Shown here piece after piece: positions 2,666-18,379 of a stretch of DNA of 64,000 bases. The notes beneath the pieces are model-generated. The model did no database searches. It was not told the DNA's origin and was given only the letters and a program-made list of their open reading frames with translations. Made by a program: the position numbers and the translations under genes. Positions within the stretch are counted from its first letter, which is position 1. Each line of letters starts with the position of its first letter. Source of the DNA: an uncultured Spirochaetota bacterium (GTDB lineage: Bacteria; Spirochaetota; Spirochaetia; SZUA-6; Fen-1364); NCBI GenBank assembly GCA_963734545.1, contig CAVTHO010000003.1, positions 288,001-352,000 of the forward strand, in the 5' to 3' direction.

Positions 2666-2707
2666 GGGTGATCAGCTGATGAACGCAGCTGCTGAAGGCA
2701 AAACGCC

Positions 2708-3439
2708 CTATCTTCTCTGCGCGGATATCTTGATGCTATAGCGATCGCTGCGGATGAATAATTCTGACAGAAGAACTGGAAGGCCTCGTTTATCGTGTAC
2801 GATCGTTCTGACATGCAAGAGGGGGTGGCCCTGGCGGCAGGAAAGGGTCTTGGCAAGCTGCGGAGTTGCCAGAATCGCCCTGACATCCTTCTCACCGTAG
2901 AGCAGGGCTATTCCGCTTGACTCCAGCTTGACGAACAGGGACTCGTTCTCGCCCAGCTCGGAAATCCGGGCCTGTTCGGCAATCGCCAGCGGCAGGAAAG
3001 TGTCGTCGCGCAGCAACACTTCATTGTCTACGTAGCGGATGCGTTGGAGGTGATGAATCGACGGCGCGGTCTGCTGAAGGTCCCGCGCCACATTGGGGAG
3101 ATCCACAACCTCGTTTGCCCTGACGACAGATCGGACCACCCGCCCTTGAGACTCCATTTCTTCGCTCAGCCCGGCGAGGTGCTCTTGATTACGGACGATC
3201 TGACGTTTGGCCGCAAAAGTACCTATCCCTCGCTCTTTGTACAACACGCGCTCGTCGGCGAGTTCGTCCAGGGCTTTGCGCAAGGTCATCCGGCTGACGC
3301 CGTAGAACGCTACAAGCTCGACCTCAGTTGGGATCTTTGCGCCGACCACCCACTCCCCGGAGTTGATCCTGGAAATAATGTCCTCTTTGATTTGGAAGTA
3401 CGCCGAAATGCCCTTCTTGAACGAAATACCAGATTTCAT
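2708..3439 (-). CDS. GntR-family transcriptional regulator (HutC/UTRA subfamily)
   Basis: wHTH IPTEVELVAFYGVSRMTLRKAL, RGIGTF, C-terminal UTRA-like domain. Confidence 0.92.
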   Translation of the reverse strand: MKSGISFKKGISAYFQIKEDIISRINSGEWVVGAKIPTEVELVAFYGVSRMTLRKALDELADERVLYKERGIGTFAAKRQIVRNQEHLAGLSEEMESQGRVVRSVVRANEVVDLPNVARDLQQTAPSIHHLQRIRYVDNEVLLRDDTFLPLAIAEQARISELGENESLFVKLESSGIALLYGEKDVRAILATPQLAKTLSCRQGHPLLHVRTIVHDKRGLPVLLSELFIRSDRYSIKISAQRR

Positions 3440-3466
3440 GGCAGGGTCCCCATATAGGCGAAAAGC

Positions 3467-4537
3467 TTATTCACCAGAGTCCGCACCTTGCAGTATCCCT
3501 GCTATATCGGCAGGCGTCGGCAGCGAAGGAATAACGCCTTCAATCTGCACTGCGTGCGCAGCGGCGGCTGAAGCGTAATCACCGATTGTCCGCAACTCAT
3601 TCGTGTCCAGCCGGGCGCCGCGGAGATTGGCTTTCAGAGAAATGGTTCTCGCCAGGAGGGCAGCCATATAGGCATCCCCGGCGCCTGTCGTGTCCACGAC
3701 ACGCTCTTCCGGCACTTTGGCGGCAGCGATGCGCTCATAAACAGTTCGCGAGCTGGCCAGAATTGAGCCCTTGCGCCCGTCGGTGAGTGCCAGGAGTCGC
3801 AGGTTGGGTGCATAGTCAAAAATCGCTTCCCAACGTGCGTTCTGAGCGCGGCTGTTGTGCAACACGAACTCCAATTCTCTCACATCAATCTTCAGTATGT
3901 CTACTAGTCGCAGTAGTCTGCGAATCTCCCATTGCGCTTCTGAGGAAGTCCGCCATAGACTTGCCCGAAGGTTGACATCGAAAGCGACTTGCACACCAGC
4001 GCGGCGCGCATAGTGCACCGCGGAAAAGCAGGTGGTTCGCAACGGCTTGGCCACGAGCGCCATCGAGCTCGTATAGAGGACGTGAGCGTTTCGGAGCGTG
4101 CGGAGAGGTACGTGCTGCCGGGCCAGGTAGGTGTTCGCGCAGGGGTGACGAAAGAACACATACTCAGGTACCCGCTGGGCATTCAGCGAGATGAACGCGA
4201 TCCCAGTTCGGCGTTTGGGATCTCGACTGACTGACGCCGTCCCGACGTTGAGAGTCTGCATGGTTTCCAGCAGAAAATCGCCAAAGGGATCGGTCCCTAG
4301 TCGTGTGACAATGCAGGCCGTCTTGCCGAGTCGCGACACTCCGGCGGCGACATTCCCTGCTGATCCTCCTGGGTACCGTCTGAACTGGATCGCTTCGGCA
4401 AGCCGCTGTTGCCCTGACGCAATGAAGTCGACCATCAATTCACCAAGGCACACCACATCGAACCGTTCGTTTCCTTCTGCAGGGATCCCGGTGACCTTTA
4501 CCCCAGACAGGGGAGCATCGGCCGTGTTGTTTCCCAT
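3467..4537 (-). CDS. PfkB-family carbohydrate kinase
   Basis: GGSAGNVA, FDVNLRASLW and DTTGAGDAY signatures. Confidence 0.92.
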   Translation of the reverse strand: MGNNTADAPLSGVKVTGIPAEGNERFDVVCLGELMVDFIASGQQRLAEAIQFRRYPGGSAGNVAAGVSRLGKTACIVTRLGTDPFGDFLLETMQTLNVGTASVSRDPKRRTGIAFISLNAQRVPEYVFFRHPCANTYLARQHVPLRTLRNAHVLYTSSMALVAKPLRTTCFSAVHYARRAGVQVAFDVNLRASLWRTSSEAQWEIRRLLRLVDILKIDVRELEFVLHNSRAQNARWEAIFDYAPNLRLLALTDGRKGSILASSRTVYERIAAAKVPEERVVDTTGAGDAYMAALLARTISLKANLRGARLDTNELRTIGDYASAAAAHAVQIEGVIPSLPTPADIAGILQGADSGE

Positions 4538-4587
4538 CCGCTTGTCTCCGCTCTGTTCACGATGATAGCCTTGCGTTCAACAGCCTC

Positions 4588-5289
4588 TTAGAAAAGATCC
4601 GCCCAATTCTCCCTGTTGTTGAAAGCAGCGGCGGTCTCTTCCAGGATCATATGCCCGGTCTTCATTACATAAACTCGATCCGATACTCGTAATGCCTGAG
4701 GTATGTTCTGCTCAACAAGCAATATGGCAGTTCCAAGGCTCTGCCGAATCTGAAGCAGGGTATCCATCAGCACCCCGACAAGGTGAGGCGATAGCCCCAA
4801 CGAGGGCTCATCCAGGAACAACAACTGTGGATTCGTGATCAGCGCCATTCCTATGCCCAACATGCGCCTCTCTCCCCCGCTCAGGGTCGAGGAATTCTGC
4901 CCCTGTCTCTCTTCCAATATTGGAAACACGCCATATATGTCCTTCAATCTGCTCGGAATATCAGCCACTCGCACGGTATAGGCCCCCAGCTCCAGATTCT
5001 CTCTGACGGTCAAACCCGGAAACGTGAATCTCTCCTGTGGTATGAAGCTGATCCCGTCTTTCACGTTGTCCCGCGGTGATCGCTGCGTGATGACCGTTCC
5101 GTTGAAGACCACGCTTCCTGAAAGCGGAGGCAGGATTCCGAAAACACTCGCCAGGGTTGTTGTCTTTCCCGCGCCGTTGTGTCCAAGAATGGAAACGATC
5201 TCGCCCTTGTCGATACCCAGGGACACACCATCAATCACGATTCGCTTCCCGTAGCCCGCCCGGAGGTCATTGACTTCCAACAACACCAT
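4588..5289 (-). CDS. livF: LIV-type ABC ATP-binding protein (LivF-like)
   Basis: GHNGAGKT, LSGGERRML, LFLDEPSLGL. Confidence 0.9.
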   Translation of the reverse strand: MVLLEVNDLRAGYGKRIVIDGVSLGIDKGEIVSILGHNGAGKTTTLASVFGILPPLSGSVVFNGTVITQRSPRDNVKDGISFIPQERFTFPGLTVRENLELGAYTVRVADIPSRLKDIYGVFPILEERQGQNSSTLSGGERRMLGIGMALITNPQLLFLDEPSLGLSPHLVGVLMDTLLQIRQSLGTAILLVEQNIPQALRVSDRVYVMKTGHMILEETAAAFNNRENWADLF

Positions 5290-5295
5290 CGTCTC

Positions 5296-7032
5296 CTATG
5301 TCGCTATCGCTTTCCTGCCAAAATACATCTCCACGAGCTCGTCATTTGACATGAGTTCCGACGGCGTACCCGAAGCTATGACGCGCCCTTGCGCCATGAA
5401 GTACGAGAAATCAGCCAGCTTGCTGACTATCTCCAGGTTGTGCTCAACGATGCAGATTGTCTTGCCGAAAGCCGCCAGGCGGCGAATGAGCGCCAGCTCC
5501 TTGTCGATTGCCGTCGGATCCGTTCCCGATGCCACTTCGTCCAGGAGAAGGATGTCCGCACCGGTAGCCAGCGCGCAGGCGAGCACCAGCATTTTGTGCT
5601 CGGCAAATGAGAGATTGGTGGCCAGTTCCCTGGCCTTGTCGCCAAGTCCGACAAAGTTGAGACTTGTCATCGCCCGCCGGATGCTTTTTCTGTCCTGCCG
5701 CGCCACTCTCCTGGGAAGGAAGAACAGAAATCGCAGCTTCTCGCCGTCCTGTTTAGGGCAGCCGAGCATGACGTTATCGAGTACGGACAGGTTCTTGAAG
5801 AAGCGAACCTCCTGAAATGTCCGGACGATCCCGAGGCGAGCCCTCGAAAATGGTGGTAGTTTCGTGATATCCAGGCCATAGAGATACACGCTGCCCGCAT
5901 CAGGCTTGATGAAGCCGGTAATGAGGTTGAAAACCGTGGTCTTGCCGGCGCCATTGGGACCGATCAGAGCAGTAATCCTGCCTTCCCTCAAGGCAAAGGA
6001 GGCATCGTTCACGGCCGTGACTCCGCCAAAATGCTTGCTCAGTCCCTTCACCTCAAGGGTCACATCCCCGTCGTGTCTGACTGAGTCATTCGTATGCCCG
6101 AGGATTTCTTCCTTGTAACTTTCTGATGACTCGAGTGAGGGGCTTGTGGTTCCGAATCCGCTATGCTCGGGCACCAGGCCCTGGGGCCTGAATCTCACGA
6201 ACAGAATCAACAGCAAACCATACATGCCGGCCTGGATCGTTCCTATTATCCCCTGACCTCCACTTGCGGATAATCGTATGAACCGAAGAGCTTCCGGCAA
6301 TGATATAAGAAGAAAGGCGCCAAGTATGGAACCCCACACGTTGGCAGATCCTCCGACAACCACCATGGCGACAATGAGAATCGATTGGTCGGCTGAGAAG
6401 CTCAAGGGACTGATGAACCTCGTGTAGACGGCAAACAGGTAGCCGCCAACCGCTGCCAGAGCGCCGCTCATGCCGAACACCAGAAGCTTGAATCGAGCGA
6501 TATTCTTCCCCAGGGCCACCGTTGCTAATTCATCCTCGCGTATGCCTTTGAGGACACGGCCGAAAGCCGAGTGCGTGGTCCGCCACACAACGAAGACACA
6601 GGGGATGAACAAGGCCAGTATCACGGGCAAGAACGATACGGGAGCAACGGGATGGTATCCGAAAAGGACGAAAGCGGGTATGCCAGAGAGCCCGCCTCCG
6701 CCTCCGGTGACACGTGACAACGTCACTATCAATCCGCTGACAAGATTCTGAATACCCAGCGTGAGAAGGATAACGAGGTCATTCTTGACTCGGAAAACAG
6801 GAAAGCTGACCAGGATACCGAACAGCCATGCGGAAGCAATGGCGATGAGAAGCACCAGGATAGAGCCGAGGCCGAGGTTGATCGCCAGGATTGCCGATAC
6901 ATATGCGCCGACGCCGAAAAAGGCCGCCTGGCTCATCGTAAGAACGCCGGTGTAGCCCTGGAGAAGATTGAGCGAAAGGGCCAGGATCGAGAAGATGAGA
7001 GCCAGATCTATTATATGGAATATGTAAGGCAT
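5296..7032 (-). CDS. Fused LIV-type permease/ATPase (LivM-LivG)
   Basis: N-terminal TM domain (LSLNLLQGYTG, RPQGL); C-terminal GPNGAGKT and LLLDE. Confidence 0.9.
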   Translation of the reverse strand: MPYIFHIIDLALIFSILALSLNLLQGYTGVLTMSQAAFFGVGAYVSAILAINLGLGSILVLLIAIASAWLFGILVSFPVFRVKNDLVILLTLGIQNLVSGLIVTLSRVTGGGGGLSGIPAFVLFGYHPVAPVSFLPVILALFIPCVFVVWRTTHSAFGRVLKGIREDELATVALGKNIARFKLLVFGMSGALAAVGGYLFAVYTRFISPLSFSADQSILIVAMVVVGGSANVWGSILGAFLLISLPEALRFIRLSASGGQGIIGTIQAGMYGLLLILFVRFRPQGLVPEHSGFGTTSPSLESSESYKEEILGHTNDSVRHDGDVTLEVKGLSKHFGGVTAVNDASFALREGRITALIGPNGAGKTTVFNLITGFIKPDAGSVYLYGLDITKLPPFSRARLGIVRTFQEVRFFKNLSVLDNVMLGCPKQDGEKLRFLFFLPRRVARQDRKSIRRAMTSLNFVGLGDKARELATNLSFAEHKMLVLACALATGADILLLDEVASGTDPTAIDKELALIRRLAAFGKTICIVEHNLEIVSKLADFSYFMAQGRVIASGTPSELMSNDELVEMYFGRKAIAT

Positions 7033-7059
7033 GCACTCTTCCTCTTGCTCCGGGTACTT

Positions 7060-7935
7060 CTATTTCCTGGGCTCGAAAATTCCCTGTGGCCTGACAAGCA
7101 CGATCAGGATGAGGATCGCGAACGTGATGACGATCTGCCATTGAGATGGTATGAAAACCAGGGGCACGTTTTGCGCAAGCCCAAGGAGGATGCCGCCCAC
7201 CACTGCGCCGGCGATGCTGCCGACTCCTCCCAGAAAGGTGACAATAATGCAGGAGAAGAATGGAGCCATGCCCATACTCGGAATAACGGCTCCCCCAAGA
7301 GAATAGAGAACTGCAGCGACAGCCGCCATTCCCGATCCCAAGCCGAAAGTCAGCAGGAACGTCCGGTTCTTGTTGATACCAATGATCTCGGACATTGTCG
7401 GGTTGCATGCAACAGCCCGCATTGTCTTGCCGGCCCCGCTCCGCGCCAGGTATATCTTGAGGGATAGAATAACGAGTCCGCTCAAGGCTATTTTGAGCGC
7501 CTGCGTGCTGTCAAATGCGATACCGCCGAAATTGAGGGACCTTGTCGTGAAGCCGCTGATTGTGCGATAGTTGGCACCGAACGCGAGCTGAATGAGGCTT
7601 TGCCCCAGGATCGCCGTTCCCATTGCCGATACAAAGATGCTGAATTGGGTGGCACCCAGCCGCCTGAGCGGAGAATAGATCCCACGCTCGATGAGGTATC
7701 CCACGGCGACTGCCGCCAGAATTGCCGCGAAGAAGCCTGCTGCGAGAGGAAGGCCCAGATTCGTTGTCGCGAACACGGCTGCGTATGCTGCAGACGTGAT
7801 AACGAGAATGTGCGCGAAATGGAATGTTCCCGTCGTGCTGTAGATGAGGCTCCAGCTCAGTCCGAAGAGAGCGTACAGCATTCCGCTTGAAAGCCCGTTC
7901 AACGCAAACTGCGCCAGCAGCATTGGCATCTGCAT
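7060..7935 (-). CDS. livH: LIV-type ABC permease (LivH-like)
   Basis: NGLSSGMLYAL, FHFAH, LGGVGS, RPQG. Confidence 0.88.
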   Translation of the reverse strand: MQMPMLLAQFALNGLSSGMLYALFGLSWSLIYSTTGTFHFAHILVITSAAYAAVFATTNLGLPLAAGFFAAILAAVAVGYLIERGIYSPLRRLGATQFSIFVSAMGTAILGQSLIQLAFGANYRTISGFTTRSLNFGGIAFDSTQALKIALSGLVILSLKIYLARSGAGKTMRAVACNPTMSEIIGINKNRTFLLTFGLGSGMAAVAAVLYSLGGAVIPSMGMAPFFSCIIVTFLGGVGSIAGAVVGGILLGLAQNVPLVFIPSQWQIVITFAILILIVLVRPQGIFEPRK

Positions 7936-8147
7936 TCGCTCCTTCTCAGGACTCCTTCACCAGCCACCGCGCCACCGCGATCGCCCCCACCTTATCAACA
8001 CGACGAGCGCCTGGCTACATGCACTTTCGTGATATTTTTGTCGTGTGCGCTTTAGAGCAATCATGTACAAGGCGGATGCCAGGTCCCGCACCCGATCTCA
8101 CAGACAGGTGCAGGATGACCGGCGAACCCAGCCAGCCTTCATGCCTC

Positions 8148-8181
8148 CCCTGCTGCCTGCAATGCACTGCTGGCAGCAGGG
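8148..8181 (-). terminator. Stem-loop downstream of the SBP gene (mRNA stabiliser or partial terminator)
   Basis: CCCTGCTGCCTGCA...TGCTGGCAGCAGGG inverted repeat with one mismatch; no strong U-tract. Confidence 0.5.
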
Positions 8182-8235
8182 CGAAGCTCTCATCATGTTC
8201 TTGTTCGACTTTCTACAAGCTGTGCACCATCGACT

Positions 8236-9390
8236 CTATTCGCTGCCCAGGAACACCCGTGCACTGTTCTGCCACTTGGAAAGCGCAATCGGCTTGGAGC
8301 ACGAGCCATCGTCGTTCAACGTGACTGTCGGGCCGAAAAGCGAGGGGAATGTCCGTATCTTCATGAGCGCATTTTCGAGCTGGGTCCCGTCAAAGGGATT
8401 TCCACTATTCTTCAGAACAAAGGCAACTGTATCACGCAGGATGTACATCAATTCGTAGTAGTTTGCGGAATAGTACTCCGCCTCCTCGCCATACTTCGCC
8501 TTGTACGCCGCCGCGAACTTCTTCGCCCAGTCATTCGCGGGTGCAAAGTAGTCTTCGGCCCAGATATAGCCCTCAAGCGTATCTCCGGCTATCTTGACGG
8601 ATCCCGGGTTCAGCTGGGTACCCCCGATGGGCACCGTAATCCCCATCTCTCGAGCCTGTCTGATGATGTACCCCTGGTCGGTTTCATAGGCAAAGATGAC
8701 CAGGGCATCCGGCTTGGCGGCCATTGCCTTCGAGATATATGAGCGGAAATCGGTGGTAACTGCGACCGGGTCGTACATCTCCTTGTCCACGATCGTCATC
8801 CCCAGCTGCGCAGCCAATGACTCGGTTGTGGACATCTCGCCCTTGCCTTCATTGTTGCCGCGATAGATGACCGATATCTTCTTGATTCCGGGCTGCTTGC
8901 CAAGATACTTGATCAAAGTAGGGCTGAGGCTCAGGCTCCGCGTGTTGTGCAGTCCCTTGACGTTGAGGAGATCCAGAGCGGCACCACCGCCGTTCATCAG
9001 GACAACATGGTTCTCCCAGGCGACCGGTGCAACGGTCAAGGTGATATTAGGCCACGAGCTATTGATCCAGGGGACCTGGTCCAGGGAAATCAGCTTCCGG
9101 GCGCCGTTGAGTCCCGCTGTCGCGTCTCCACTCTTCATGTCCTCGACGACGAGGGTCAATTTGAACGGTAAAGCGCCTGAGGCGTTGATCTCATCCAGCG
9201 CCAGCTGCTGACCTTGAGTCATGACTTTCCCGTAAAATGCCCCATCACCCGTCACTGCCATCAGCGCGCCGATTTTCATCTCTTTGGGAAGAGATGTCGT
9301 GGATTTCTCGGCACTCGGACCAGCAAAGCCGAAGGTTGCCACCACCACCAACACCAACAGAGCGATGAACCATCTCTTTCTCCCGTACAT
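8236..9390 (-). CDS. LIV-type ABC substrate-binding protein
   Basis: SD TAAGGAGG before ATG 9390; signal peptide MYGRKRWFIALL; KIGALMAVTG, LALDEINASG, DFRSYISK. Confidence 0.9.
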   Translation of the reverse strand: MYGRKRWFIALLVLVVVATFGFAGPSAEKSTTSLPKEMKIGALMAVTGDGAFYGKVMTQGQQLALDEINASGALPFKLTLVVEDMKSGDATAGLNGARKLISLDQVPWINSSWPNITLTVAPVAWENHVVLMNGGGAALDLLNVKGLHNTRSLSLSPTLIKYLGKQPGIKKISVIYRGNNEGKGEMSTTESLAAQLGMTIVDKEMYDPVAVTTDFRSYISKAMAAKPDALVIFAYETDQGYIIRQAREMGITVPIGGTQLNPGSVKIAGDTLEGYIWAEDYFAPANDWAKKFAAAYKAKYGEEAEYYSANYYELMYILRDTVAFVLKNSGNPFDGTQLENALMKIRTFPSLFGPTVTLNDDGSCSKPIALSKWQNSARVFLGSE

Positions 9391-9636
9391 TTCATGTACC
9401 TCCTTATAGAGATCTTTTGACCGGGCTTTCAGCGCGTGAGTACAGTTTCGGGGCGACTTCCTGCACGAGTTCACAACCGCCGGCTGCGTCGTTCGGGTTG
9501 GCCTCTGCCCCCTCTGGAGGGCCGGGTTCCGCGGGTCCCGGCAGGGAGGCTCGTCGGGTTCCTGCTCTGCAGCCGATGACTCCAGTTCGAACTGCCCCAC
9601 GCACCTCCTGACCGTCTACCTGTATAGACGTATGCT

Positions 9637-9665
9637 ATTCTACACGACTGTCCCCTCAGTGTCAA
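9637..9665 (-). promoter_or_regulatory. Sigma70 promoter for the ABC/kinase/GntR operon
   Basis: TTGACA-17 bp-TAGAAT on the minus strand. Confidence 0.75.
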
Positions 9666-9754
9666 GGCAGAAGTCGCGGGGATAACGGGAGGCATCGATG
9701 CGATGCCTCCAGGATCATGGAATCCGCATTGAAGAGGTCGCCTCGGCACATAAC

Positions 9755-9783
9755 TTGACAGCATGAATCCAGAGGTCTAATAT
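9755..9783 (+). promoter_or_regulatory. Sigma70 promoter for the E2 catalytic-domain gene
   Basis: TTGACA-17 bp-TAATAT. Confidence 0.72.
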
Positions 9784-9786
9784 GAG

Positions 9787-9802
9787 GTATGGACATCTAT
9801 AC
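9787..9802. promoter_or_regulatory. Putative GntR/HutC-type operator
   Basis: GTATGGACATCTATAC, an imperfect palindrome over the expected TSS; related motifs at 10613-10628 and 9621-9630. Confidence 0.6.
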
Positions 9803-9883
9803 ATTCTGTTTGCGGTGATTCTGTGAACTTCGAGCGCCAATTTGGCCATATCCATGGGTCTCTTGGAGAAAGGGAAGGACCAC

Positions 9884-10558
9884 GTGACGGAGAAAAGGAT
9901 CAAGCTGAGGGGCGTGCAGCGTCGTGTGGCCGAGCAGGTCGCGAAGAGCGCGTTTACGATCCCTCACGTGACAACGATTCGCGAAGTCAGGATGCAAAAG
10001 GTCGACGAGGTCAGGAGAAACCTTGCCGGCCAGTTCGGGAAGCTCACGACAATGCCTTTCATCATCAAGGCAGTCGTGTCGTCGATACAGCAGCAACCCG
10101 TGCTCAACGCGAGTCTTGACGGTGACGACATCGTTCTGCATGACTCGGTCAACATTGGAATTGCAGTCACGGTAGGGAATGACCTCTTTGTGCCGGTCAT
10201 GAGGGAAGTCCAGTCCATGGCTTTTCGAAATGTCGTGGAGAGCCTGGACGACCTCGTCGACAGGACGAGGTCACGAAAGCTGCAACTGGAAGATCTTCGC
10301 AATGCGACTTTCACGATCACCAACTCGGGCGCGTTGGGCGGCGAAATCTTCACGCCAATCATAAGTGTTCCGCAATCGGCGATCCTTGGTATCGGCCGAA
10401 TACAGAACAAGCCCGTGGTGGACTCAAACAATGCCATCGTCGTCTGCCCAATGATGTATCTGTGTCTCTCCTATGACCACCGAATAATCAATGGGAGTGA
10501 CGCCGTGCGTTTTCTCGACGCAATTGACAGGTGGCTCCAGGACCCGGTGCCGGACTAG
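9884..10558 (+). CDS. Stand-alone 2-oxoacid dehydrogenase E2 acyltransferase catalytic domain
   Basis: IPHVT, TFTITNSG, FTPII, LSYDHRIING; no lipoyl or subunit-binding domain; GTG start after GGGAAGGA. Confidence 0.88.
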   Translation: MTEKRIKLRGVQRRVAEQVAKSAFTIPHVTTIREVRMQKVDEVRRNLAGQFGKLTTMPFIIKAVVSSIQQQPVLNASLDGDDIVLHDSVNIGIAVTVGNDLFVPVMREVQSMAFRNVVESLDDLVDRTRSRKLQLEDLRNATFTITNSGALGGEIFTPIISVPQSAILGIGRIQNKPVVDSNNAIVVCPMMYLCLSYDHRIINGSDAVRFLDAIDRWLQDPVPD

Positions 10559-10580
10559 AGATCTCTCTCCGATGTTGTCC

Positions 10581-10608
10581 TTGACAATGCTTATGGGGCT
10601 GGTACAAT
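10581..10608 (+). promoter_or_regulatory. Sigma70 promoter for the E1/CoA-transferase operon
   Basis: TTGACA-16 bp-TACAAT with extended -10 TGn. Confidence 0.72.
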
Positions 10609-10612
10609 ATAC

Positions 10613-10628
10613 GTATCGATGACTATAC
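10613..10628. promoter_or_regulatory. Putative GntR/HutC-type operator
   Basis: GTATCGATGACTATAC; shares GTATnGAnnnCTATAC with 9787-9802. Confidence 0.6.
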
Positions 10629-10674
10629 AATCTCCATCTCCTCCAAGTGTTTCAAGGTGCGGAGGATCGGCACA

Positions 10675-11634
10675 ATGCTTCTAGACACAAACGCATTGCT
10701 GGATCTCTACTATTATCTTTTCCTGACGCGGAGCTTTGAGAACTCGCTTGTCGAGATGTTTGCTGATAAGTCCTTGCCCGAAAAGCCAATGACGAGCATA
10801 GGCCAGGAAGCGACAGCCGTCGGCGCCACGTTTTGCCTCCGCAAGGATGACTATGTGCTCCCTGCGTTGAGAACGCGCGGTGCCTTCTTCACCAAGGGCA
10901 TCACTGCTACAGAATACCTGCTCGAAGTACTTCGGAAGGGCACAAGCATATCAGGCGGGAGATGGACTGCGCACCACCTGGGCGACATTACTCGTGGGAT
11001 CATTCTCGGGAGTGCCGTTGTCAGCAGCTCTTTGCCAGTGGCGGCAGGCACGGCCCTGTCAGCAAAGATCCGCGGCACCGATCAGGTCACGCTTGCTTTT
11101 TTTGGCGACGGCGGAAGCAGCACCGGAGAAGTCCATTCCGCCATGAATTTTGCCGCGGTTCTGAACCTCCCGGTCGTGTTCGTCTGCGAGAACAATCGCT
11201 ATTCCCTTTCCACGCCGATAGCACTTCAAACCCGCAATGAAGACATTGCGGATCGTGCGTTCGGCTATGGGATGGAAGGAGACATCGTGGACGGCCAGGA
11301 TGTCATCGAGGTGGTTCATTCTGTCTCGAGGGCAGTCCAGCGCGCACGGCGTGGAAGCGGGCCTTCTCTGGTCGAATGCAAGACATATCACTTTCGAGGT
11401 CATTCCGAAAGCCACCATCCAGACGACGGAAGACCAGTTGAGGAGCTTGCCAGGTGGCGTGCGCGAGATCCGGTACAACTGTTCGAGGCATACCTGAAGA
11501 ATAATGGATTCTCGGATCGTCAGCTCGAATCCATCCGATCTCGGGTAGCTTCCGAGATCCAGACCGCCCGAGAGGTCGCCGCCGCCGCGCCGGAGCCTGC
11601 GACGGACGCCGTCCTCTGGAACGCGTATGCCTGA
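10675..11634 (+). CDS. TPP-dependent dehydrogenase E1 alpha subunit
   Basis: IGQEA, TPP motif GDGG...ENN, VDGQD, FRGHS. Confidence 0.92.
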   Translation: MLLDTNALLDLYYYLFLTRSFENSLVEMFADKSLPEKPMTSIGQEATAVGATFCLRKDDYVLPALRTRGAFFTKGITATEYLLEVLRKGTSISGGRWTAHHLGDITRGIILGSAVVSSSLPVAAGTALSAKIRGTDQVTLAFFGDGGSSTGEVHSAMNFAAVLNLPVVFVCENNRYSLSTPIALQTRNEDIADRAFGYGMEGDIVDGQDVIEVVHSVSRAVQRARRGSGPSLVECKTYHFRGHSESHHPDDGRPVEELARWRARDPVQLFEAYLKNNGFSDRQLESIRSRVASEIQTAREVAAAAPEPATDAVLWNAYA

Positions 11635-11671
11635 GATCGGCCAGCCAACCGGCGATTGAGGAGTATGCACA

Positions 11672-12673
11672 ATGGTAACAACTGTGTCCGGTGCATTGAG
11701 GGAGGCACTCAAGAAGGCCTTGCGCGATGACAACACAGTCTTTCTCATGGGTGAGGACATCGCGGAATACGGGGGCATATACAGGGTCACGCGAGGTCTG
11801 AGCGACGAATTCGGCCGTGATCGAGTCATTGATACGCCGATGGCGGAGATCAGCATCGTTGGCGCAGGCATCGGGGCGGCAGTCACCGGTCTGCGACCGG
11901 TGGTGGAGATAATGTATGCCGACTTTCTGCCAATCACGATGGATCAAATAGTAAACAACGCCGCCAAGTTCTACTTCCTGTCCGGCGGCAAGACACCGGT
12001 CCCGTTGGTCGTTCGGTGCAACTTCGGCGCCGGGAAGGCGGAGGGGGCGCTCCAGAGTCAGACTCCCGAAGCATGGTTCCTCAATTTCCCTGGCGTCAAA
12101 GTGGTGATGCCCTCCAACCCGCAAGACGCCTATGGATTGCTGCTGAGCAGCATCTACGACAACAATCCCGTTTTGTTCTGCGAGCACAAGATGCTCTATG
12201 CTTTGCGCGGCGAACTCGACGTGAGTCAGCCGCTGCCTCCCATTGGCTCGGCGTCTGTCAGCAGAAAGGGCGAAGAGATCACAATCGTTTCCTGCGGACA
12301 CATGCTTCACAAATGCCTCGACGCGGCAGCCCAGCTCTCCAAGGACGGCATTTCCGCGGAGGTGATTGACGTACGTACATTGAAACCTCTCGATGAGTCG
12401 ACGGTCTGCGAATCGGTCCGAAAGACCGGTCGTCTCCTCGTTGCAGAAGAGAACCCCAGGACCGGCGGCTGGGGACTGCAAGTCCTTGAATCGGTGGTCA
12501 CGAATTGCTTCTCGGAGATGAAGGAACCACCCCGACGGATCTCTGCGATGGACGTGCCGCTTCCCGCAGCGAAGAATCTCGAAGAGTTTGCCGTGCCGAC
12601 GGTGGGCAGCATTGTCAGCGCAGTCCGGCACGTGCTTGTGCCCGGCAAGAAGCTGCAGAGGAGCCACTCGTGA
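11672..12673 (+). CDS. TPP-dependent dehydrogenase E1 beta subunit
   Basis: GEDI, DTPMAE, RPVVEIMYADF, DVRTLKPLD, SVRKTGR. Confidence 0.92.
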   Translation: MVTTVSGALREALKKALRDDNTVFLMGEDIAEYGGIYRVTRGLSDEFGRDRVIDTPMAEISIVGAGIGAAVTGLRPVVEIMYADFLPITMDQIVNNAAKFYFLSGGKTPVPLVVRCNFGAGKAEGALQSQTPEAWFLNFPGVKVVMPSNPQDAYGLLLSSIYDNNPVLFCEHKMLYALRGELDVSQPLPPIGSASVSRKGEEITIVSCGHMLHKCLDAAAQLSKDGISAEVIDVRTLKPLDESTVCESVRKTGRLLVAEENPRTGGWGLQVLESVVTNCFSEMKEPPRRISAMDVPLPAAKNLEEFAVPTVGSIVSAVRHVLVPGKKLQRSHS

Positions 12674-12912
12674 AAGAGAAAGCAGTAGTCATCCCGCGGG
12701 TCGACGATGTGCCCGAGGTCGAGATATCCAAATGGTATGTTCACGAAGGCGACCGGATAACACCTGATGCATTGCTCGCTGAATTGCTAGCCGACAAAGC
12801 AGCCGTGGAGCTTCGGTCCGAGGATTCCGGCAAAGTCGTGCGGGTCCTGAAGGCGGAGGGCGAGGTGGTCAAAGTCGGGGACACTGTCCTCATCATCGAG
12901 TGCGATGAATAA
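12670..12912 (+). CDS. Stand-alone lipoyl carrier domain protein (80 aa)
   Basis: WYVHEGD, ADKAAVE (lipoyl Lys), GEVVKVG; GTGA overlap with the E1 beta stop. Confidence 0.88.
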   Translation: MKEKAVVIPRVDDVPEVEISKWYVHEGDRITPDALLAELLADKAAVELRSEDSGKVVRVLKAEGEVVKVGDTVLIIECDE

Positions 12913-12947
12913 CGTCCTGATCCAGCACATTTAAGGAGGATATTGCA

Positions 12948-14138
12948 ATGCGTGGCTCACTGGAAGGAATCAGGGTGCTGGACCTGTCGCGCGTAATTTC
13001 CGGACCCCATTGCTGCATGATACTGGGGGACCTGGGAGCTGAGGTCATAAAGGTGGAAAAACCCCACACGGGGGATATGTCCCGGCAGAATTATCCGAAG
13101 GTCAACGATGAAAGCACCTACTTCATGGCGTACAACCGGAACAAGAGGAGCATCACGCTGGATTTCCGACATCCGGACGCGAAGGCGCTCTTCCTGAAAC
13201 TGCTGAAAAAAGCCGATGTTGTCGTGGAGAATTTCCGCGCAGGGACGATGGAAGAGATGAAACTTGGGTATGACGAACTGAGCAAGGTCAACCCCGGAAT
13301 CATTCTCACCAGGATATCAGGATTCGGCCAGGATGGACCGAGTTCGCACCGGACATGCTTTGACCCGGTGGCACAGGCGATCAGCGGGTTGATGGATGTG
13401 ACGGGACCCGAGGACGGTCCGCCCATCGTGCTTGGAACGTATGTCGTCGATTGTGCGAGCGCCCTGTACGCGGTGATCGGCACGCTGGCAGCACTCCACG
13501 CGCGCGAAAAAACCGGCAGGGGACAAGTGGTCGATGTGGCGCTGCTCGATACCGCTGTTTCGCTTCTGCACACCGCGATACCGGACTATCAACTCCTGGG
13601 TCAGAAGCTGACGAGAATCGGCAACAACGACCGCTATGCCTGGCCGGCCAATATCTACCAGGCCAGCAACGGGCGCTGGGTCTACATCCATGCGGGCATG
13701 GACAACACCTTCTCCGCGTTGATGAAGATCATGGGGAGGGAAGAGCTGCGGGAAGACGAAAGGTACAAAACGCGCAAAGCCCGGGAGGCCAACAAGCGGG
13801 CGTGTGATGATCTCGTCCAGTCATGGGTTTCTACGCTGCCCGCTGAAGAGGTGGTCGAGGTCGTGTCCCAGGCGGGCATCCCGTGCGCCCGGATCAACGA
13901 TGTGACCGAAATGATCGTGGACCCGCAGGTAAATCACCGGGGCATGGTGGCAAAGGTCGATCATCCGAAGGTGGGCGAGCTGCATCTCACCGGTCCGGTT
14001 GTGCACTTCTCAGATACAAAAGCGAGCATACGCAGCGCTCCGCCGCTGCTGGGCGAGCACAACAAAGATGTCTATGGCGAACTGCTGGGCCTGACGGAGA
14101 AGGAAATTGCTTCCCTGTCGGCAGACGGCCTGATATAG
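12948..14138 (+). CDS. CaiB/BaiF (family III) CoA-transferase
   Basis: LEGIRVLDLS, GAEVIKVE, NRNKRSITLD, ENFRAG, ISGFGQDGP, PPLLGEH. Confidence 0.93.
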   Translation: MRGSLEGIRVLDLSRVISGPHCCMILGDLGAEVIKVEKPHTGDMSRQNYPKVNDESTYFMAYNRNKRSITLDFRHPDAKALFLKLLKKADVVVENFRAGTMEEMKLGYDELSKVNPGIILTRISGFGQDGPSSHRTCFDPVAQAISGLMDVTGPEDGPPIVLGTYVVDCASALYAVIGTLAALHAREKTGRGQVVDVALLDTAVSLLHTAIPDYQLLGQKLTRIGNNDRYAWPANIYQASNGRWVYIHAGMDNTFSALMKIMGREELREDERYKTRKAREANKRACDDLVQSWVSTLPAEEVVEVVSQAGIPCARINDVTEMIVDPQVNHRGMVAKVDHPKVGELHLTGPVVHFSDTKASIRSAPPLLGEHNKDVYGELLGLTEKEIASLSADGLI

Positions 14139-14174
14139 CCGCAATTTGTATTGACGGCAGGAGGGGTAGATCAG

Positions 14175-15062
14175 ATGAAGAGTAAGCTTACAGACTTGAG
14201 CACGGCAGCACGAAAGGTACCCTCCGGAAGCAGTATCGCCATTGGAGGAAGCATCATTCGCCGGCAGCCGACGGCCTTCGCGCGCGAGCTGATTCGAAAC
14301 GGAATCAAGAACCTGACGATCTATGGTTATCCATGCGGATTGGCAACCGATATGCTTGCCGGCGTCGGGGCAGTGAAACGCATCGAGGCGGTATACACCG
14401 GACTTTTCGAATACGGCATGGCCTACAATATCCGCCGCGGCGTCGAGTCGGGCGCCATAGAAATGATTGATTTTCCCGAGGTTGCGCAATGTGCACGGTT
14501 TCAGGCCGCGGAGATGGGACTCCCTTTCCTGCCGACGAGGACGCTCAAAGCGACCGGGATGGCGCACTATAACCCGGAGCAGATCAAAGAGATCACCTGT
14601 CCGTTCACGGGTGAAAAGATGCATGCGGTGCCTGCAATCAATGCGGATTTCACGGTGCTGCACGGGTACTCCGGAGACGAATACGGAAATGTCCAGTGGC
14701 CGGAGCATCGTGACGCCGACGACCTCGACCCCCTGATGGCCAAGGCCGCCCGGAGGCTCATCGTGACAGTGGAAAAGATCGTTCCGCACTCGGAAATCAT
14801 CAAGATACCAAACAGCACATACATACCGCACCACTGGGTGGAAGCCATCGTCGAGGTTCCCTTCGGCGCTCATCCAGCCCAATGTGATGCGTTCTACGAC
14901 GAGGATGAAACTCACCTGGAGTACTACCAGGAGTGTGCCAGGGACCCTCAAAGGTGGGTCGCTGAGTACGCGCAGAAGTACATCTATGGAGTGAAAAGTC
15001 ACGAGGAATACCTGAACCTGGCAGTATCGCCGTATCGGCTCGCCAAGCTCATTGTACGATAG
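14175..15062 (+). CDS. Family I CoA-transferase-fold alpha subunit (GctA-like)
   Basis: GGSIIRRQP, AAEMGLPFLP, CPFTGE, DEYGNV, PFGAHP. Confidence 0.85.
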   Translation: MKSKLTDLSTAARKVPSGSSIAIGGSIIRRQPTAFARELIRNGIKNLTIYGYPCGLATDMLAGVGAVKRIEAVYTGLFEYGMAYNIRRGVESGAIEMIDFPEVAQCARFQAAEMGLPFLPTRTLKATGMAHYNPEQIKEITCPFTGEKMHAVPAINADFTVLHGYSGDEYGNVQWPEHRDADDLDPLMAKAARRLIVTVEKIVPHSEIIKIPNSTYIPHHWVEAIVEVPFGAHPAQCDAFYDEDETHLEYYQECARDPQRWVAEYAQKYIYGVKSHEEYLNLAVSPYRLAKLIVR

Positions 15063-15074
15063 AAGGAGTTCATC

Positions 15075-15884
15075 ATGCCGGATGTTGGCGATTACACGGT
15101 GAACGAATTGATGGTGGCCGCCACTTCTCGCGAACTGCGGGATGGCGAGCTGGGTTTCATCGGGGTCGGAACGGCGGGGCGGGCGTATACGCTGGCAGTG
15201 GGGATTCCCATGGCCGCAGCCCGTCTTGCGCAGTGCACACATGCACCCGACTTCACCATTTTCTGGAACAACCTTCTGAGCCCGGACCTGGGTCAGATCC
15301 CACCGAAACTGACCCAGAACTATCTCACGAGGTGGCCGACAGCATATCAACCGGTATGTTCGGCGGACAAGAACGGCATGCTGGCTCGGGGCGAGTTCGA
15401 TGTCTCATTCGATTCTGCTCCACAGATAGACAAGTTCGGGAACCTGAACATCACCGCGATCGGCGATTACAGGAAGCCCAAGGTGAGGCTGGTCGGCTGC
15501 CTCGCGCAGACAGACCATTTCTCGTTCATCAAGCGTCCCATCATCATCACCGATTTGAAGAAGCGCGCCTTCGTCGAGAAGGTCGATTTCATCACCAGTG
15601 TCGGGTATCTGAGCGGAGGCGACAGCCGTGTACAAGCCGGCCTGTTGCCGTACGGACCGTGGAAGGTGATCACCGAAAGATGCATCTTCAACTTCCATGA
15701 GGTGCAGAAGGTCATGCAGATTGAATCCCTGCATCCCGGCGTCACGCTGGAAGAGGTTCTGGACAATATGAGCTTCACGCCGCTCATTCCCGAGAATATT
15801 CCAGTAACGGACGCGCCGACAGACGCGGAGGTGAAGCTCATTCGAGAAGTCATAGATCCGAACAGGATCCTCTTGAGGGCCTGA
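15075..15884 (+). CDS. Family I CoA-transferase-fold beta subunit (GctB-like), canonical Glu not evident
   Basis: QIDKFGNLN, FVEKVDFITS, SLHPGV, IDP terminus; expected ESG region reads IFWNN. Confidence 0.82.
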   Translation: MPDVGDYTVNELMVAATSRELRDGELGFIGVGTAGRAYTLAVGIPMAAARLAQCTHAPDFTIFWNNLLSPDLGQIPPKLTQNYLTRWPTAYQPVCSADKNGMLARGEFDVSFDSAPQIDKFGNLNITAIGDYRKPKVRLVGCLAQTDHFSFIKRPIIITDLKKRAFVEKVDFITSVGYLSGGDSRVQAGLLPYGPWKVITERCIFNFHEVQKVMQIESLHPGVTLEEVLDNMSFTPLIPENIPVTDAPTDAEVKLIREVIDPNRILLRA

Positions 15885-15899
15885 CAAGGAGCGCACCGA

Positions 15900-16838
15900 A
15901 TGATTATTGATACTCACTATCACTATGACGATTGGCCAAAGGACCCGGAGTCACAAAAAAGAAAGGCGTTGGGGTGGCTGTACGATGCCGAACGGTGTGG
16001 AGTGAAGAAGCCGTTGGACGAGGCCATGCCTTTCTATGCGGAGAACGTGGATGATCCCGACTGTCACAAGCTTATCAAGCGAATGGATGATTGTGGAATC
16101 AACCTGACCGTGCTGCTGATGCTGGACAACATCGATGAGGGCTTGGATGACGAGGCTGTTGTTTCCTGCAATGAAAAATGTGCCCGGGCGGCGGCCAGGT
16201 ATCCGGGCCGCCTTATTGCCATGGCGGGAATTGACCCCCGGCGCAGGGATGCGCCATCGCTATTTCGTCATTGCGTCGAGAAACTGCACATGAGCGGGCT
16301 GAAATGGCATCCAGATGTGGGCTATTACCCCAATAGCAGGGAAGCATATGCTGTTCTGGAAGTAGCAAACGAATTGGGGCTGCCGCTTGTCATCCATACG
16401 GGACCTCTTTCGGGTTCAAAAGCCAAGTATTCACATCCAATCCACCTTGATGAAATAGCCCTGGATTTCCCAAATATAAATATCGTGGCCGCACATTCGG
16501 GCGATATCTTCTGGCATGATTGGGCAGCGGTCGCGCACTACAAAAAGAACATCTATGGGGATCTCGCCATGTGGCAGCTGAGAGCTGAAAGCAAGCCTCA
16601 TCTCTTTCGCCGATATTTGAGAGAAATGCTGGATATCGTCGGGCCCGAACAAATCCTCTTCTGTACTGATGGAGTGGCATTTGACCTTCATGTGCCAGTT
16701 CAGAGATGGATAAACATAGTCAAGTCTCTGCCGGAAGATGTGCAGGATGGAATACGGTTCACCCAAAGTGAAATTGATGCGATTTTATGGCGAAATGCTC
16801 TAAAAGCCTTTCATCTGGAAAGACTTGTGCAATCATAG
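15900..16838 (+). CDS. Amidohydrolase_2-family metal-dependent hydrolase or decarboxylase
   Basis: IIDTHYH, GLKWHP, IHTG, AAHSG, LFCTD. Confidence 0.88.
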   Translation: MIIDTHYHYDDWPKDPESQKRKALGWLYDAERCGVKKPLDEAMPFYAENVDDPDCHKLIKRMDDCGINLTVLLMLDNIDEGLDDEAVVSCNEKCARAAARYPGRLIAMAGIDPRRRDAPSLFRHCVEKLHMSGLKWHPDVGYYPNSREAYAVLEVANELGLPLVIHTGPLSGSKAKYSHPIHLDEIALDFPNINIVAAHSGDIFWHDWAAVAHYKKNIYGDLAMWQLRAESKPHLFRRYLREMLDIVGPEQILFCTDGVAFDLHVPVQRWINIVKSLPEDVQDGIRFTQSEIDAILWRNALKAFHLERLVQS

Positions 16839-16893
16839 AGGAGTATGCTGCGCCCCGCGAAGTCGCACGATCGTCTCAAGAGGAATCAGGAGT

Positions 16894-16978
16894 TGCTGCG
16901 GACTGGACTTGAACCAGCACACCCTTTCGGGCACTAGCCCCTCAAGCTAGCGTGTCTACCAAATTCCACCACCGCAGC
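16894..16978 (-). tRNA. tRNA-Leu(GAG)
   Basis: GCTGCGG acceptor stem, D-loop GGAATTTGGTAGAC, anticodon loop TT-GAG-GG, long variable arm, GGTTCAAGTCC; CCA not encoded. Confidence 0.95.
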
Positions 16979-16989
16979 GAGAATGGCGA

Positions 16990-17018
16990 ACTATAGCCAT
17001 TCCCGGAACGCGTGTCAA
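16990..17018 (-). promoter_or_regulatory. Sigma70 promoter of the tRNA
   Basis: TTGACA-17 bp-TATAGT, 11 nt upstream of the tRNA. Confidence 0.78.
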
Positions 17019-17149
17019 TATTCGGTGCCGCCGGACACGTCCCGACCGTGTATCGGCATGCCCGCGCCCGGGCGCGAACACCCGTCCCCCGGGTACCCGC
17101 GCCGGATTCTCACCTTCCCGCGTGTCGTTTTCCTCCTTATATTGGGCCT

Positions 17150-18379
17150 GTGACCATGCACGGCAAAGAAGCAGCTTTCCTGCTCGAGCACTGCGATGTC
17201 GTTCTGCCCGACCAGCTGGTGCGGTCAGGGGCAGTGCTCGCCGCGGACGGGAAGATCCTCTTTGCGGGCGCAGCAGCCGACCTGCCGCACCCGGTTCCTC
17301 CCGGCTGCCGGCGGATACCGGCGGAGGGGGCCCTGGCGTGCCCCGCGCTCTGGGAGACGCACGTGCATGGCTGCGGCGGGGTGAGCACGGAGAACATGAG
17401 CGCGCAATCCCTGGCTGAAATGGCGGGGTTTCTGGCGGCCCGCGGCGTCGGGGCCTTCCTGCCCACCACGGTTGCGGATGAACGCTACCTGGCGAGCCTG
17501 GGTGACGCGCTGCATTCCGCGGCTGATGACGTGCGGGACCGGGCGCTCGGCATCCACGTCGAGGGTCCGTTCGTTGCGCGTTCCCGCCGGGGCGCGATAG
17601 ACGAGGCGCTGATCCGGCCGATATCGATCGAGTACCTGGAACGGATGATCTCGCTTGCCCGGGAGAAGATCCGCATCATGACATTTGCGCCGGAGCTTTC
17701 CGGCGCCGTCATGCTGGCGGATCGGCTGCGGGGTCTCGGCATCCTGCCATCCCTTGGACATTCCGCGGCGTCCTACGAATCGCTGGGCCCGTTTGACGCG
17801 GTCTCCCCGCTCTGCGTCACGCACCTGTTCAACGGCATGAGCGGCATATCCCACAAGGAACCGGGTCTCGCGCATTGGGCGCTCCTGAACAGGGAGGTCT
17901 TCACGGAGCTCAACTGCGACGGCACGCACGTGCACGACGCCGGCGTGCGGCTCGCGCTCAGGGCGCGTCCGTGGGAGAAGCTCGTCGTCATATCCGATGC
18001 GGTGACTCCCGCCGGTCTGTCCCTGCAGGATGCCGGCGGGAGCCCCGGCCGAGCCCCGGAGCCCGCCCACTCCCTGTATGGCAGGCCGCTCGTCGAAAGA
18101 GGCAATGGGCTGTACTACGCGGATACCGGTGTGCTGGTAGGCTCCCGCTGTCTCGTGCCTGATTGCGTGGCCCGGCTGGTCTTCGAGCTCGATGTGCCCC
18201 TTCCCGCGGCGGTCGCCATGGCCGCGCTGAATCCGGCGCGGCTTCTCGGCTTCCGCCGAAAAGGCGCCCTCCTTCCCGGTTATGACGCGGATGTGGCCCT
18301 GTTCAGCCGGGATTTCAAGCGCTGCTCGTTCCTTTCCTGGGAGGGACGGACGATCCACGAGGCCGCGCAGGAGGCATGA
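17150..18379 (+). CDS. nagA: N-acetylglucosamine-6-phosphate deacetylase
   Basis: HVHGCGG, HVEGPF, APE, GHS, THLFNGM, DGTHV, SDA; start GTG 17150 or ATG 17156. Confidence 0.88.
   Translation: MTMHGKEAAFLLEHCDVVLPDQLVRSGAVLAADGKILFAGAAADLPHPVPPGCRRIPAEGALACPALWETHVHGCGGVSTENMSAQSLAEMAGFLAARGVGAFLPTTVADERYLASLGDALHSAADDVRDRALGIHVEGPFVARSRRGAIDEALIRPISIEYLERMISLAREKIRIMTFAPELSGAVMLADRLRGLGILPSLGHSAASYESLGPFDAVSPLCVTHLFNGMSGISHKEPGLAHWALLNREVFTELNCDGTHVHDAGVRLALRARPWEKLVVISDAVTPAGLSLQDAGGSPGRAPEPAHSLYGRPLVERGNGLYYADTGVLVGSRCLVPDCVARLVFELDVPLPAAVAMAALNPARLLGFRRKGALLPGYDADVALFSRDFKRCSFLSWEGRTIHEAAQEA

Follow-up and report, generated by a model that had tools for sequence, protein, structure and literature searches.

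Two adjacent genes in a 64,000-nucleotide stretch of DNA from an uncultured Spirochaetota bacterium (GenBank assembly GCA_963734545.1, contig CAVTHO010000003.1, positions 288,001 to 352,000; hereafter the window) encode the alpha and beta subunits of a protein pair of the GctAB fold (PF01144), and the beta subunit lacks the catalytic glutamate of the GctAB-type CoA-transferases. This loss is one of four coordinated active-site changes that are conserved among the relatives of the pair. Because the catalytic glutamate and the GGAQID motif of the transferases are both replaced, the pair should not be filed as a CoA-transferase, and its sequence suggests that it represents an additional functional clade, so far uncharacterised, within the GctAB fold. 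The reading favoured here, plausible although held tentatively, is that a neighbouring CaiB protein makes a CoA thioester and that the pair is a non-transferase acyl-CoA enzyme, which cleaves a C–C bond in the manner of IpdAB.

Fold and active-site residues of the two subunits

The alpha gene precedes the beta gene, as in the GctA/GctB layout of Acidaminococcus fermentans (PDB 1POI), and an alpha/beta pairing of subunits is the textbook case for this fold. GctAB is also the best solved match by both sequence and fold. In phmmer searches of PDB chains the alpha subunit matched GctA (E-value 3.4e-36), AibA (4.4e-29) and IpdA (1e-26), and the beta subunit matched GctB (3.6e-28), IpdB (9.9e-17) and AibB (2.1e-10); the bit scores for GctAB versus IpdAB were 128.6 versus 97 for alpha and 101.9 versus 64 for beta. 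AlphaFold2 models of alpha and beta had a mean predicted local distance difference test score (pLDDT) of 87.1 and 84.1, respectively. With the beta model as query, Foldseek returned 1poi_B (2.1e-21), AibB (1.9e-18) and IpdB (2.7e-16), the template modelling score to 1POI was 0.78-0.81, and the top matches were all class I CoA-transferase-fold chains. These matches bear out an initial annotation, made from the sequence, that had taken the two products for a GctAB-fold pair. A GGAGG motif lies 8 nt 5' of the alpha ATG at 14175, so this codon is likely to be the true start, as proposed in that annotation, and the longer reading frame from TTG 14151 is likely to be an artefact. AGGAG precedes the beta ATG at 15075. 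Two antisense open reading frames (ORFs), at 14010-15350 and 15405-15923, were without a Pfam match and are presumed to be non-coding.

According to the accessible part of PMC5380842, Glu54 of the beta subunit is the residue of glutaconate CoA-transferase that forms the CoA anhydride or thioester. In this region the window's beta subunit reads THAPDFTIFWNNLL, and the residue in question is Trp64 (codon 15264-15266). The phmmer alignment to PDB chains sets 'ftif.WNN' opposite 'hiivESG' of GctB, with Trp64 on the glutamate of ESG, and when the beta subunit is aligned by MAFFT with canonical paralogues taken from related loci, 'IF WNN' likewise stands opposite 'VF ESG'. No invariant glutamate was found in the alignment of 19 beta sequences. 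The same canonical paralogues have 11 residues fewer where the beta subunit carries GTAGRAYTLAV, a loop of which TAGRAYTLAV forms residues 33-42 (15171-15200). Two homologues from the same order (L043 and L044, 41-42% identical) have FEAGG and GGAQID and are without the loop. Finally, FDSAPQID (residues 112-119) replaces the GGAQID of GctB and of the glutamate-bearing relatives. The missing ESG glutamate and the inserted TAGRAYTLAV segment, both of which had been read from the window alone, are therefore upheld by the comparison with homologues.

The alpha subunit carries Glu102 in the motif DFPEVAQ, and exactly 13 residues (VAQCARFQAAEMG) separate it from LPFLP, the spacing given in the initial annotation. 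On alignment, Glu102 falls opposite position 117 of the IpdA chain, the sole residue at which the sequences 6co6_A (Glu) and 6coj_A (Ala) differ. The equivalence of the two glutamates, given provisionally in the initial annotation, therefore holds at the level of the alignment; the IpdA glutamate is reported in a structure paper of 2018 to be the catalytic base. The aligned residue is Gln in GctA, Gly in AibA, and His or Asn in the alpha partners of canonical ESG betas. In contrast, a glutamate is present in every alpha partner of the two kinds of glutamate-less beta described below, the W-type and 'type-2'. Compared with the nearest glutamate-bearing homologues (L043, L044, L031, L032 and L037), four changes thus occur jointly: Glu to Trp in beta, GGAQID to DSAPQID in beta, gain of the 11-residue beta loop, and Asn or His to Glu in alpha.

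Conservation and phylogeny of the loop-bearing clade

A homologue search with the beta subunit returned 2,791 proteins at E <= 1e-5, and motifs were scored in the best 120 of these (60-93% identical). W[NG]N was found in 119 of the 120 and the loop motif in 115. At the FDSAPQID site 99 had DSAP, 15 DSAS, two DSAA, two ESAP and one NSAP, and one had none of these. Trp64 was invariant in all 19 aligned beta subunits, as was Glu102 in all 17 aligned alpha subunits. Given the near-universal presence of W[NG]N and the loop among the best homologues, Trp64, the loop, DSAP and the alpha glutamate are family traits and not chance features of one genome.

A wider sample was drawn from a 50%-identity representative library, which held 1,817 beta relatives at E <= 1e-3 and 65 at E <= 1e-30. 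The best 150 representatives were taken, and 124 of them cover the motif region and could be scored: the glutamate alone is present in 46, the loop alone in 26, neither in 52 and both in none. The glutamate is therefore absent from 78 of the 124 scorable clusters, distributed over at least three tree groups, and its loss is common across the superfamily.

A quick maximum-likelihood tree was built from 118 rows, comprising the window's beta subunit and 117 of the best 150 representatives, with the Shimodaira–Hasegawa-like approximate likelihood ratio test (SH-aLRT) as its sole measure of support. The 33 rows left out either did not cover the motif region or were outside 200-330 aa in length, and the rows do not include the PDB sequences of IpdB and AibB. 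Seventeen loop-bearing, glutamate-less rows, including the window's beta subunit, form one clade (SH-aLRT 97), separate from a clade that contains 43 of the 44 glutamate-bearing rows. The loop-bearing clade is distinct and coherent. It also holds a second subtype, 'type-2' (ILLAG[WC]xHNP), the alpha partner of which keeps the glutamate, and type-2 pairs share loci with W-type pairs, that is, those with Trp at the Glu54 position. A loop-bearing type-2 pair, with DYPE in its alpha subunit, lies beside a sugar ATP-binding cassette (ABC) importer in Azospirillum (L020-L024 and L039) and in Burkholderiales (L028 and L031), and in L031 canonical ESG, type-2 and W-type pairs are all found within 8 kb. 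An ESM Atlas search returned generic CoA-transferase clusters only, and no paper on the loop-bearing, glutamate-less clade was found in a literature search that was weak on subscription journals and excluded supplements.

Operon and gene neighbourhoods

The pair is encoded in an operon with the order E2 domain, E1 alpha, E1 beta, lipoyl protein, CaiB, alpha, beta and Amidohydrolase_2, from which an ABC importer, a PfkB kinase and a GntR/UTRA regulator diverge (Table 1).

Table 1. Coordinates in the window of the alpha/beta pair, the other operon genes and the divergent genes
Feature	Position	Strand	Length	Basis
Alpha subunit, GctA-like	14175-15062	+	295 aa	PF01144 7.7e-24; Glu102 at 14478-14480 in DFPEVAQ
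Beta subunit, GctB-like	15075-15884	+	269 aa	PF01144 4.7e-13; Trp64, loop, FDSAPQID
2-Oxoacid dehydrogenase E2, catalytic domain only	9842-10558	+	238 aa	PF00198 1e-72
Thiamine diphosphate (ThDP)-dependent E1 alpha	10657-11634	+		PF00676 2.2e-65; pyruvate dehydrogenase E1 alpha models 251 bits, below cut-off
ThDP-dependent E1 beta	11672-12673	+		PF02779, PF02780; NF006667 339.6 bits (cut-off 321)
Free lipoyl-domain protein	12670-12912	+	80 aa	PF00364 3.4e-14; DKA lysine motif
CaiB/BaiF class III CoA-transferase	12948-14138	+	396 aa	PF02515 1.1e-129, full length
Amidohydrolase_2, last operon gene	15900-16838	+	312 aa	PF04909 1.7e-26
GntR/UTRA regulator	2708-3439	-		PF00392, PF07702
PfkB-family sugar/sugar-acid kinase	3467-4537	-		PF00294 5e-51; IolC 184 bits, fructokinase 178 bits, below cut-off
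Liv-type ABC importer	4588-9600	-		PF00005, PF02653, PF13458
Importer ATPase	4588-5289	-		
Importer permease-ATPase fusion	5296-7032	-		
Importer permease	7060-7935	-		
Importer binding protein	8236-9600	-		

The best PDB chains for the CaiB protein were succinate--hydroxymethylglutarate CoA-transferase (1.2e-79) and formyl-CoA transferase (8.7e-74), and CaiB is the probable thioester-forming partner of the alpha/beta pair, as judged from these matches and from gene context. The E2 protein is split, with its catalytic domain encoded upstream of E1 alpha and beta and a free lipoyl protein downstream of them; the best NCBIfam match of the catalytic domain is sucB (218 bits, below cut-off), and the GTG start of the lipoyl gene overlaps the stop codon of E1 beta. 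In two clostridial loci (L002 and L016) an 82-aa lipoyl protein is encoded immediately 5' of the E2 catalytic domain, at 8-256 and 269-964, respectively, in L016. No E3 gene was seen among the annotated operon genes. BB4693, itself uncharacterised, is the best PDB match of the last gene product (2.1e-7), for which a lactonase, hydratase or decarboxylase function is possible; a homologue of this protein was found in none of the 41 related loci considered below.

The regulator, kinase, importer and entire operon lie in a low-G+C block at about 2000-16900, with a G+C fraction of 0.555-0.582 versus 0.59-0.69 elsewhere in the window. The beta gene was not found in 20 genomes of the same genus and four of the same family (completeness 60-99%). 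This absence, together with the low G+C, indicates that the cluster is a catabolic island of probable horizontal origin. Positions 365-2665, at the island's edge, encode a 766-aa protein with BspA-type leucine-rich and Listeria-Bacteroides repeats, probably located at the cell surface. An ORF of the amidohydrolase family (455 aa, 17012-18379), immediately beyond the low-G+C block, has a Pfam match confined to the C-terminal region (residues 392-435), and its called start may be too far upstream.

Related loci were taken from 41 named genome records, giving 42 when the window is added. They span Spirochaetales, Lachnospiraceae and other Clostridia, NC10/Methylomirabilis, Chloroflexia, Actinomycetes, Azospirillum, Rhizobiales, Burkholderiales and one Bathyarchaeia bin, and the closest relative is L001 of the Spirochaetales, with a beta subunit 94% identical to that of the window. 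All of the 41 loci except L018, L035 and L041, 38 in total, have a CaiB homologue no more than 8 kb from the pair; it is usually immediately adjacent, with genes that often overlap or nearly abut. The presence of CaiB fits the initial annotation, in which CaiB was proposed to activate the substrate. In one of the loci without CaiB within 8 kb, L018 of Subtercola, the pair is followed at 8812-11694 by a 960-aa fusion of flavin adenine dinucleotide-linked oxidase, 4Fe-4S and CCG domains, which is similar to glycolate/D-lactate oxidases.

By approximate count, a ThDP enzyme is encoded in 22 of the 42 loci (E1 alpha/beta in six, acetohydroxyacid synthase (AHAS)-like NF004772 in 16) and a kinase in 25 (PfkB in nine, DhaK in 12, the remainder FGGY); by homology search, PfkB homologues occur in 11 of the 41 related loci. 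Both the ThDP enzyme and the kinase are of non-homologous types in different phyla, which suggests that pathway steps are conserved rather than an inherited gene order. Other recurrent neighbours are LacI regulators (17 of 42), GFO/IDH/MocA dehydrogenases (10), AroE-like dehydrogenases (8), MaoC-like hydratases (8) and short-chain dehydrogenases/reductases (7), and the MaoC-like hydratases are a pointer to CoA-ester chemistry. Further neighbours include sugar importers of the ABC and tripartite ATP-independent periplasmic (TRAP) types, enolase-superfamily dehydratases, dihydrodipicolinate synthase-like proteins, aldehyde dehydrogenases, PF04199 cyclases, DUF2090 proteins and xylose-isomerase-like barrels. 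On the basis of these families, the gene context of the pair is carbohydrate or sugar-acid catabolism and not steroid catabolism.

Five loci of Lachnospiraceae and Agathobaculum (L003-L006 and L019) have CaiB, alpha and beta in an operon with a TRAP importer, E1 alpha/beta, PfkB and an AroE-like dehydrogenase, and no E2 was seen in these operons. The same five loci continue with an iron-dependent alcohol dehydrogenase and with HpaB-family, acetyl-CoA hydrolase/transferase-family and NifU genes, which by family assignment would correspond to a gene set (dehydrogenase, CoA-transferase and dehydratase types) for conversion of 4-hydroxybutyrate to crotonyl-CoA. The arrangement is a hint that gut bacteria use the pathway to supply butyrate synthesis.

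Proposed reaction and alternatives

The pair has the fold and the paired subunits of a class I CoA-transferase and neither the E-x-G glutamate nor the GGAQID motif. It shares both its fold and the absence of the beta glutamate with IpdA/IpdB, the steroid ring-opening COCHEA-CoA hydrolase known from Rhodococcus jostii RHA1 and Mycobacterium tuberculosis (PDB 6CO6, 6CO9, 6COJ and 6CON), and it has the conserved alpha glutamate at the position mutated in 6COJ. IpdAB takes as its substrate a CoA ester supplied by a different enzyme. As described in the accessible part of PMC5380842, IpdAB is without the beta glutamate and without CoA-transferase activity, and its reaction is a retro-aldol hydrolysis of a CoA ester. 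However, the similarity to IpdAB is lower than that to GctAB, IpdB aligns only from residue 43 on and so shows no counterpart of the loop, and neither the steroid-catabolic neighbours echA20, ipdC and fadA6 nor a KstR2-type steroid context was found among the annotated genes. Since GctAB scores higher for both subunits and the context is sugar and sugar-acid catabolism, the pair is not an IpdAB orthologue. The fold and a replaced beta glutamate are likewise found in AibA/AibB, the 3-methylglutaconyl-CoA decarboxylase of Myxococcus xanthus (PDB 5MZW and variants), which PMC7756340, in its accessible part, describes as catalysing a non-transferase reaction on a CoA ester with Cys56-beta at the transferase glutamate position. 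In the window's beta subunit this position is Trp64, and the sequence match to AibB is confined to the N-terminal part. AibB-type decarboxylases also have a proton relay at Glu72-beta; the alignment of 19 beta subunits shows no invariant glutamate.

In the proposed pathway, CaiB would form the CoA thioester of a carbohydrate-derived (hydroxy)acid, and the pair, no longer transferring CoA, would act on this thioester with alpha Glu102 as general base. The reaction would most likely be a retro-aldol or retro-Claisen cleavage, with or without water, of the C–C bond beta to the thioester. Of the products, the carbonyl or 2-oxo-acid compound would pass to the co-encoded ThDP enzyme (E1 alpha/beta with the split E2 in the window, the AHAS-like enzyme in Alphaproteobacteria), the small sugar fragment would pass to the co-encoded kinase, and the shorter acyl-CoA would be recycled by CaiB. 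A non-transferase function is suggested because beta has lost both the transferase nucleophile and the glycine motif, and another CoA-transferase is nearly always encoded nearby. Glu102 is the candidate base because alpha has no other invariant acidic residue in the vicinity of its aligned active site and because IpdA has this residue too, and C–C cleavage is proposed because IpdAB shows no CoA transfer and opens a ring by retro-aldol-type hydrolysis. The recurring ThDP enzyme and kinase fit a pathway that yields carbonyl or 2-oxo-acid and small sugar fragments. A precedent for CoA-bound sugar-acid catabolism has been proposed for deoxyribonate from fitness data (PMC6365646).

Several observations weigh against this proposal. 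GctAB, a true transferase, resembles the pair more closely than IpdAB does, and the placement of Glu102 at the active site depends on alignment to IpdA. In the pairwise alignment with IpdB, Trp64 is set one residue away from the Gly equated with Glu54, an offset that falls inside the alignment uncertainty. The neighbour counts over the 42 loci come from a crude ORF caller and our own clustering; 20 of these loci have no ThDP enzyme within 8 kb and L001 has a CaiB-alpha-beta module only, so the pathway logic is not universal. Finally, the conserved GxGTxGR-like loop and the sugar kinases could instead point to a phosphorylated, non-CoA substrate.

Of the alternatives, a change of the CoA ester that spares its carbon skeleton (hydration or dehydration, isomerisation, epimerisation or plain thioester hydrolysis) is unlikely but deserves some weight. 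A general-base glutamate beside a thioester-binding site could support any of these reactions, the conserved Asp113 of FDSAPQID and the loop are unexplained and could serve a different chemistry, and the spread of glutamate loss over 78 of 124 clusters in at least three tree groups makes many superfamily functions likely. Nevertheless, MaoC-type hydratases are already encoded in eight of the 42 loci, and a plain thioesterase acting after a CoA-transferase would make a futile pair. Decarboxylation in the manner of AibA/AibB, with CaiB activating a dicarboxylic acid and the pair removing CO2 from a (vinylogous) beta-carboxy thioester, is improbable. It has a precedent in AibA/AibB, a solved GctAB-fold decarboxylase with the glutamate replaced (PMC7756340, accessible part); AibB is the second-best fold match of beta and AibA the second-best PDB match of alpha, and the best PDB relative of CaiB moves CoA to dicarboxylates. 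However, the AibB Cys56 position is Trp in beta and the AibA Gly stands against an invariant alpha glutamate, the match between beta and AibB is weak and covers residues 6-174, and genes for 3-hydroxy-3-methylglutaryl-CoA or isovalerate metabolism were not seen nearby.

There is little to recommend the idea that the pair is still a CoA-transferase with a different nucleophile, such as alpha Glu102 or beta Asp113, even though its closest solved relative by sequence and fold is a genuine transferase and each subunit has an invariant acidic residue. The E-x-G glutamate and GGAQID are both replaced, the glutamate-bearing relatives are all loop-less, with no scorable cluster combining loop and glutamate, a dedicated CoA-transferase is co-encoded in 38 of 41 loci, and IpdAB, with the same alpha glutamate, showed no transfer in the accessible account (PMC5380842). 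An equally slight chance is given to a pair that binds a phosphorylated sugar or sugar acid, as an isomerase or a non-catalytic binding protein, with CaiB acting elsewhere in the pathway. Folds of the CoA-transferase type are classed together with sugar-phosphate isomerases (NagB/RpiA-like), the invariant G-x-G-T-x-G-R insertion looks like a loop for binding phosphate or carboxylate, and sugar kinases are common neighbours. Against this, the pair is tightly adjacent to CaiB and all solved relatives bind CoA esters.

C–C cleavage of a CaiB-made thioester can be extended to a wider and more doubtful proposal, in which the loop-bearing, glutamate-less clade would be a new enzyme class within the CoA-transferase fold. 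Its members would be beta-hydroxy- or beta-oxo-acyl-CoA C–C lyases working with CaiB, the ThDP enzyme and the kinase in an undescribed, CoA-dependent breakdown of a common sugar acid or hydroaromatic acid of plant or dietary origin, and in gut Lachnospiraceae butyrate would be formed from succinate semialdehyde and 4-hydroxybutyrate supplied by this route. Candidate substrates would be aldonates, aldarate derivatives and quinate- or shikimate-derived acids. As regards clues to the substrate, the solved relatives of the Lachnospiraceae TRAP binding protein are distant (best 1.4e-29), an alphaproteobacterial ABC binding protein is ribose-binding-protein-like (1.2e-42), that is, 'monosaccharide-like' at most, and the window's Amidohydrolase_2 protein has no informative relative. 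The AHAS-like ThDP enzyme belongs to the uncharacterised NCBIfam subfamily NF004772 (934.7 bits); it shows no special similarity to 2-hydroxyacyl-CoA lyases or to glyoxylate carboligase. Four specific routes were also set aside, as neither aldonyl-CoA retro-aldol cleavage, quinate/shikimate ring opening, a homocitrate-like lyase route nor 2-carboxy-aldonate decarboxylation explains all of the gene contexts.

Proteins of this kind are labelled automatically as 'glutaconate' or '3-oxoacid CoA-transferase subunit B'. This label is almost certainly wrong for the loop-bearing clade and may also be wrong for most of the glutamate-less clusters. To our knowledge, IpdAB and AibAB are the only non-transferase functions of the fold, and a third, if true, would widen its known chemistry. 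The module of CaiB, pair, ThDP enzyme and kinase recurs in soil Alphaproteobacteria, Burkholderiales, Actinomycetes, Chloroflexia, NC10, Clostridia and Spirochaetales, which suggests that the module serves a pathway for the breakdown of an abundant compound; no description of this pathway was found in searchable papers. In Lachnospiraceae and Agathobaculum the module is joined to butyrate-forming genes, and it may be an unrecognised dietary source of butyrate.

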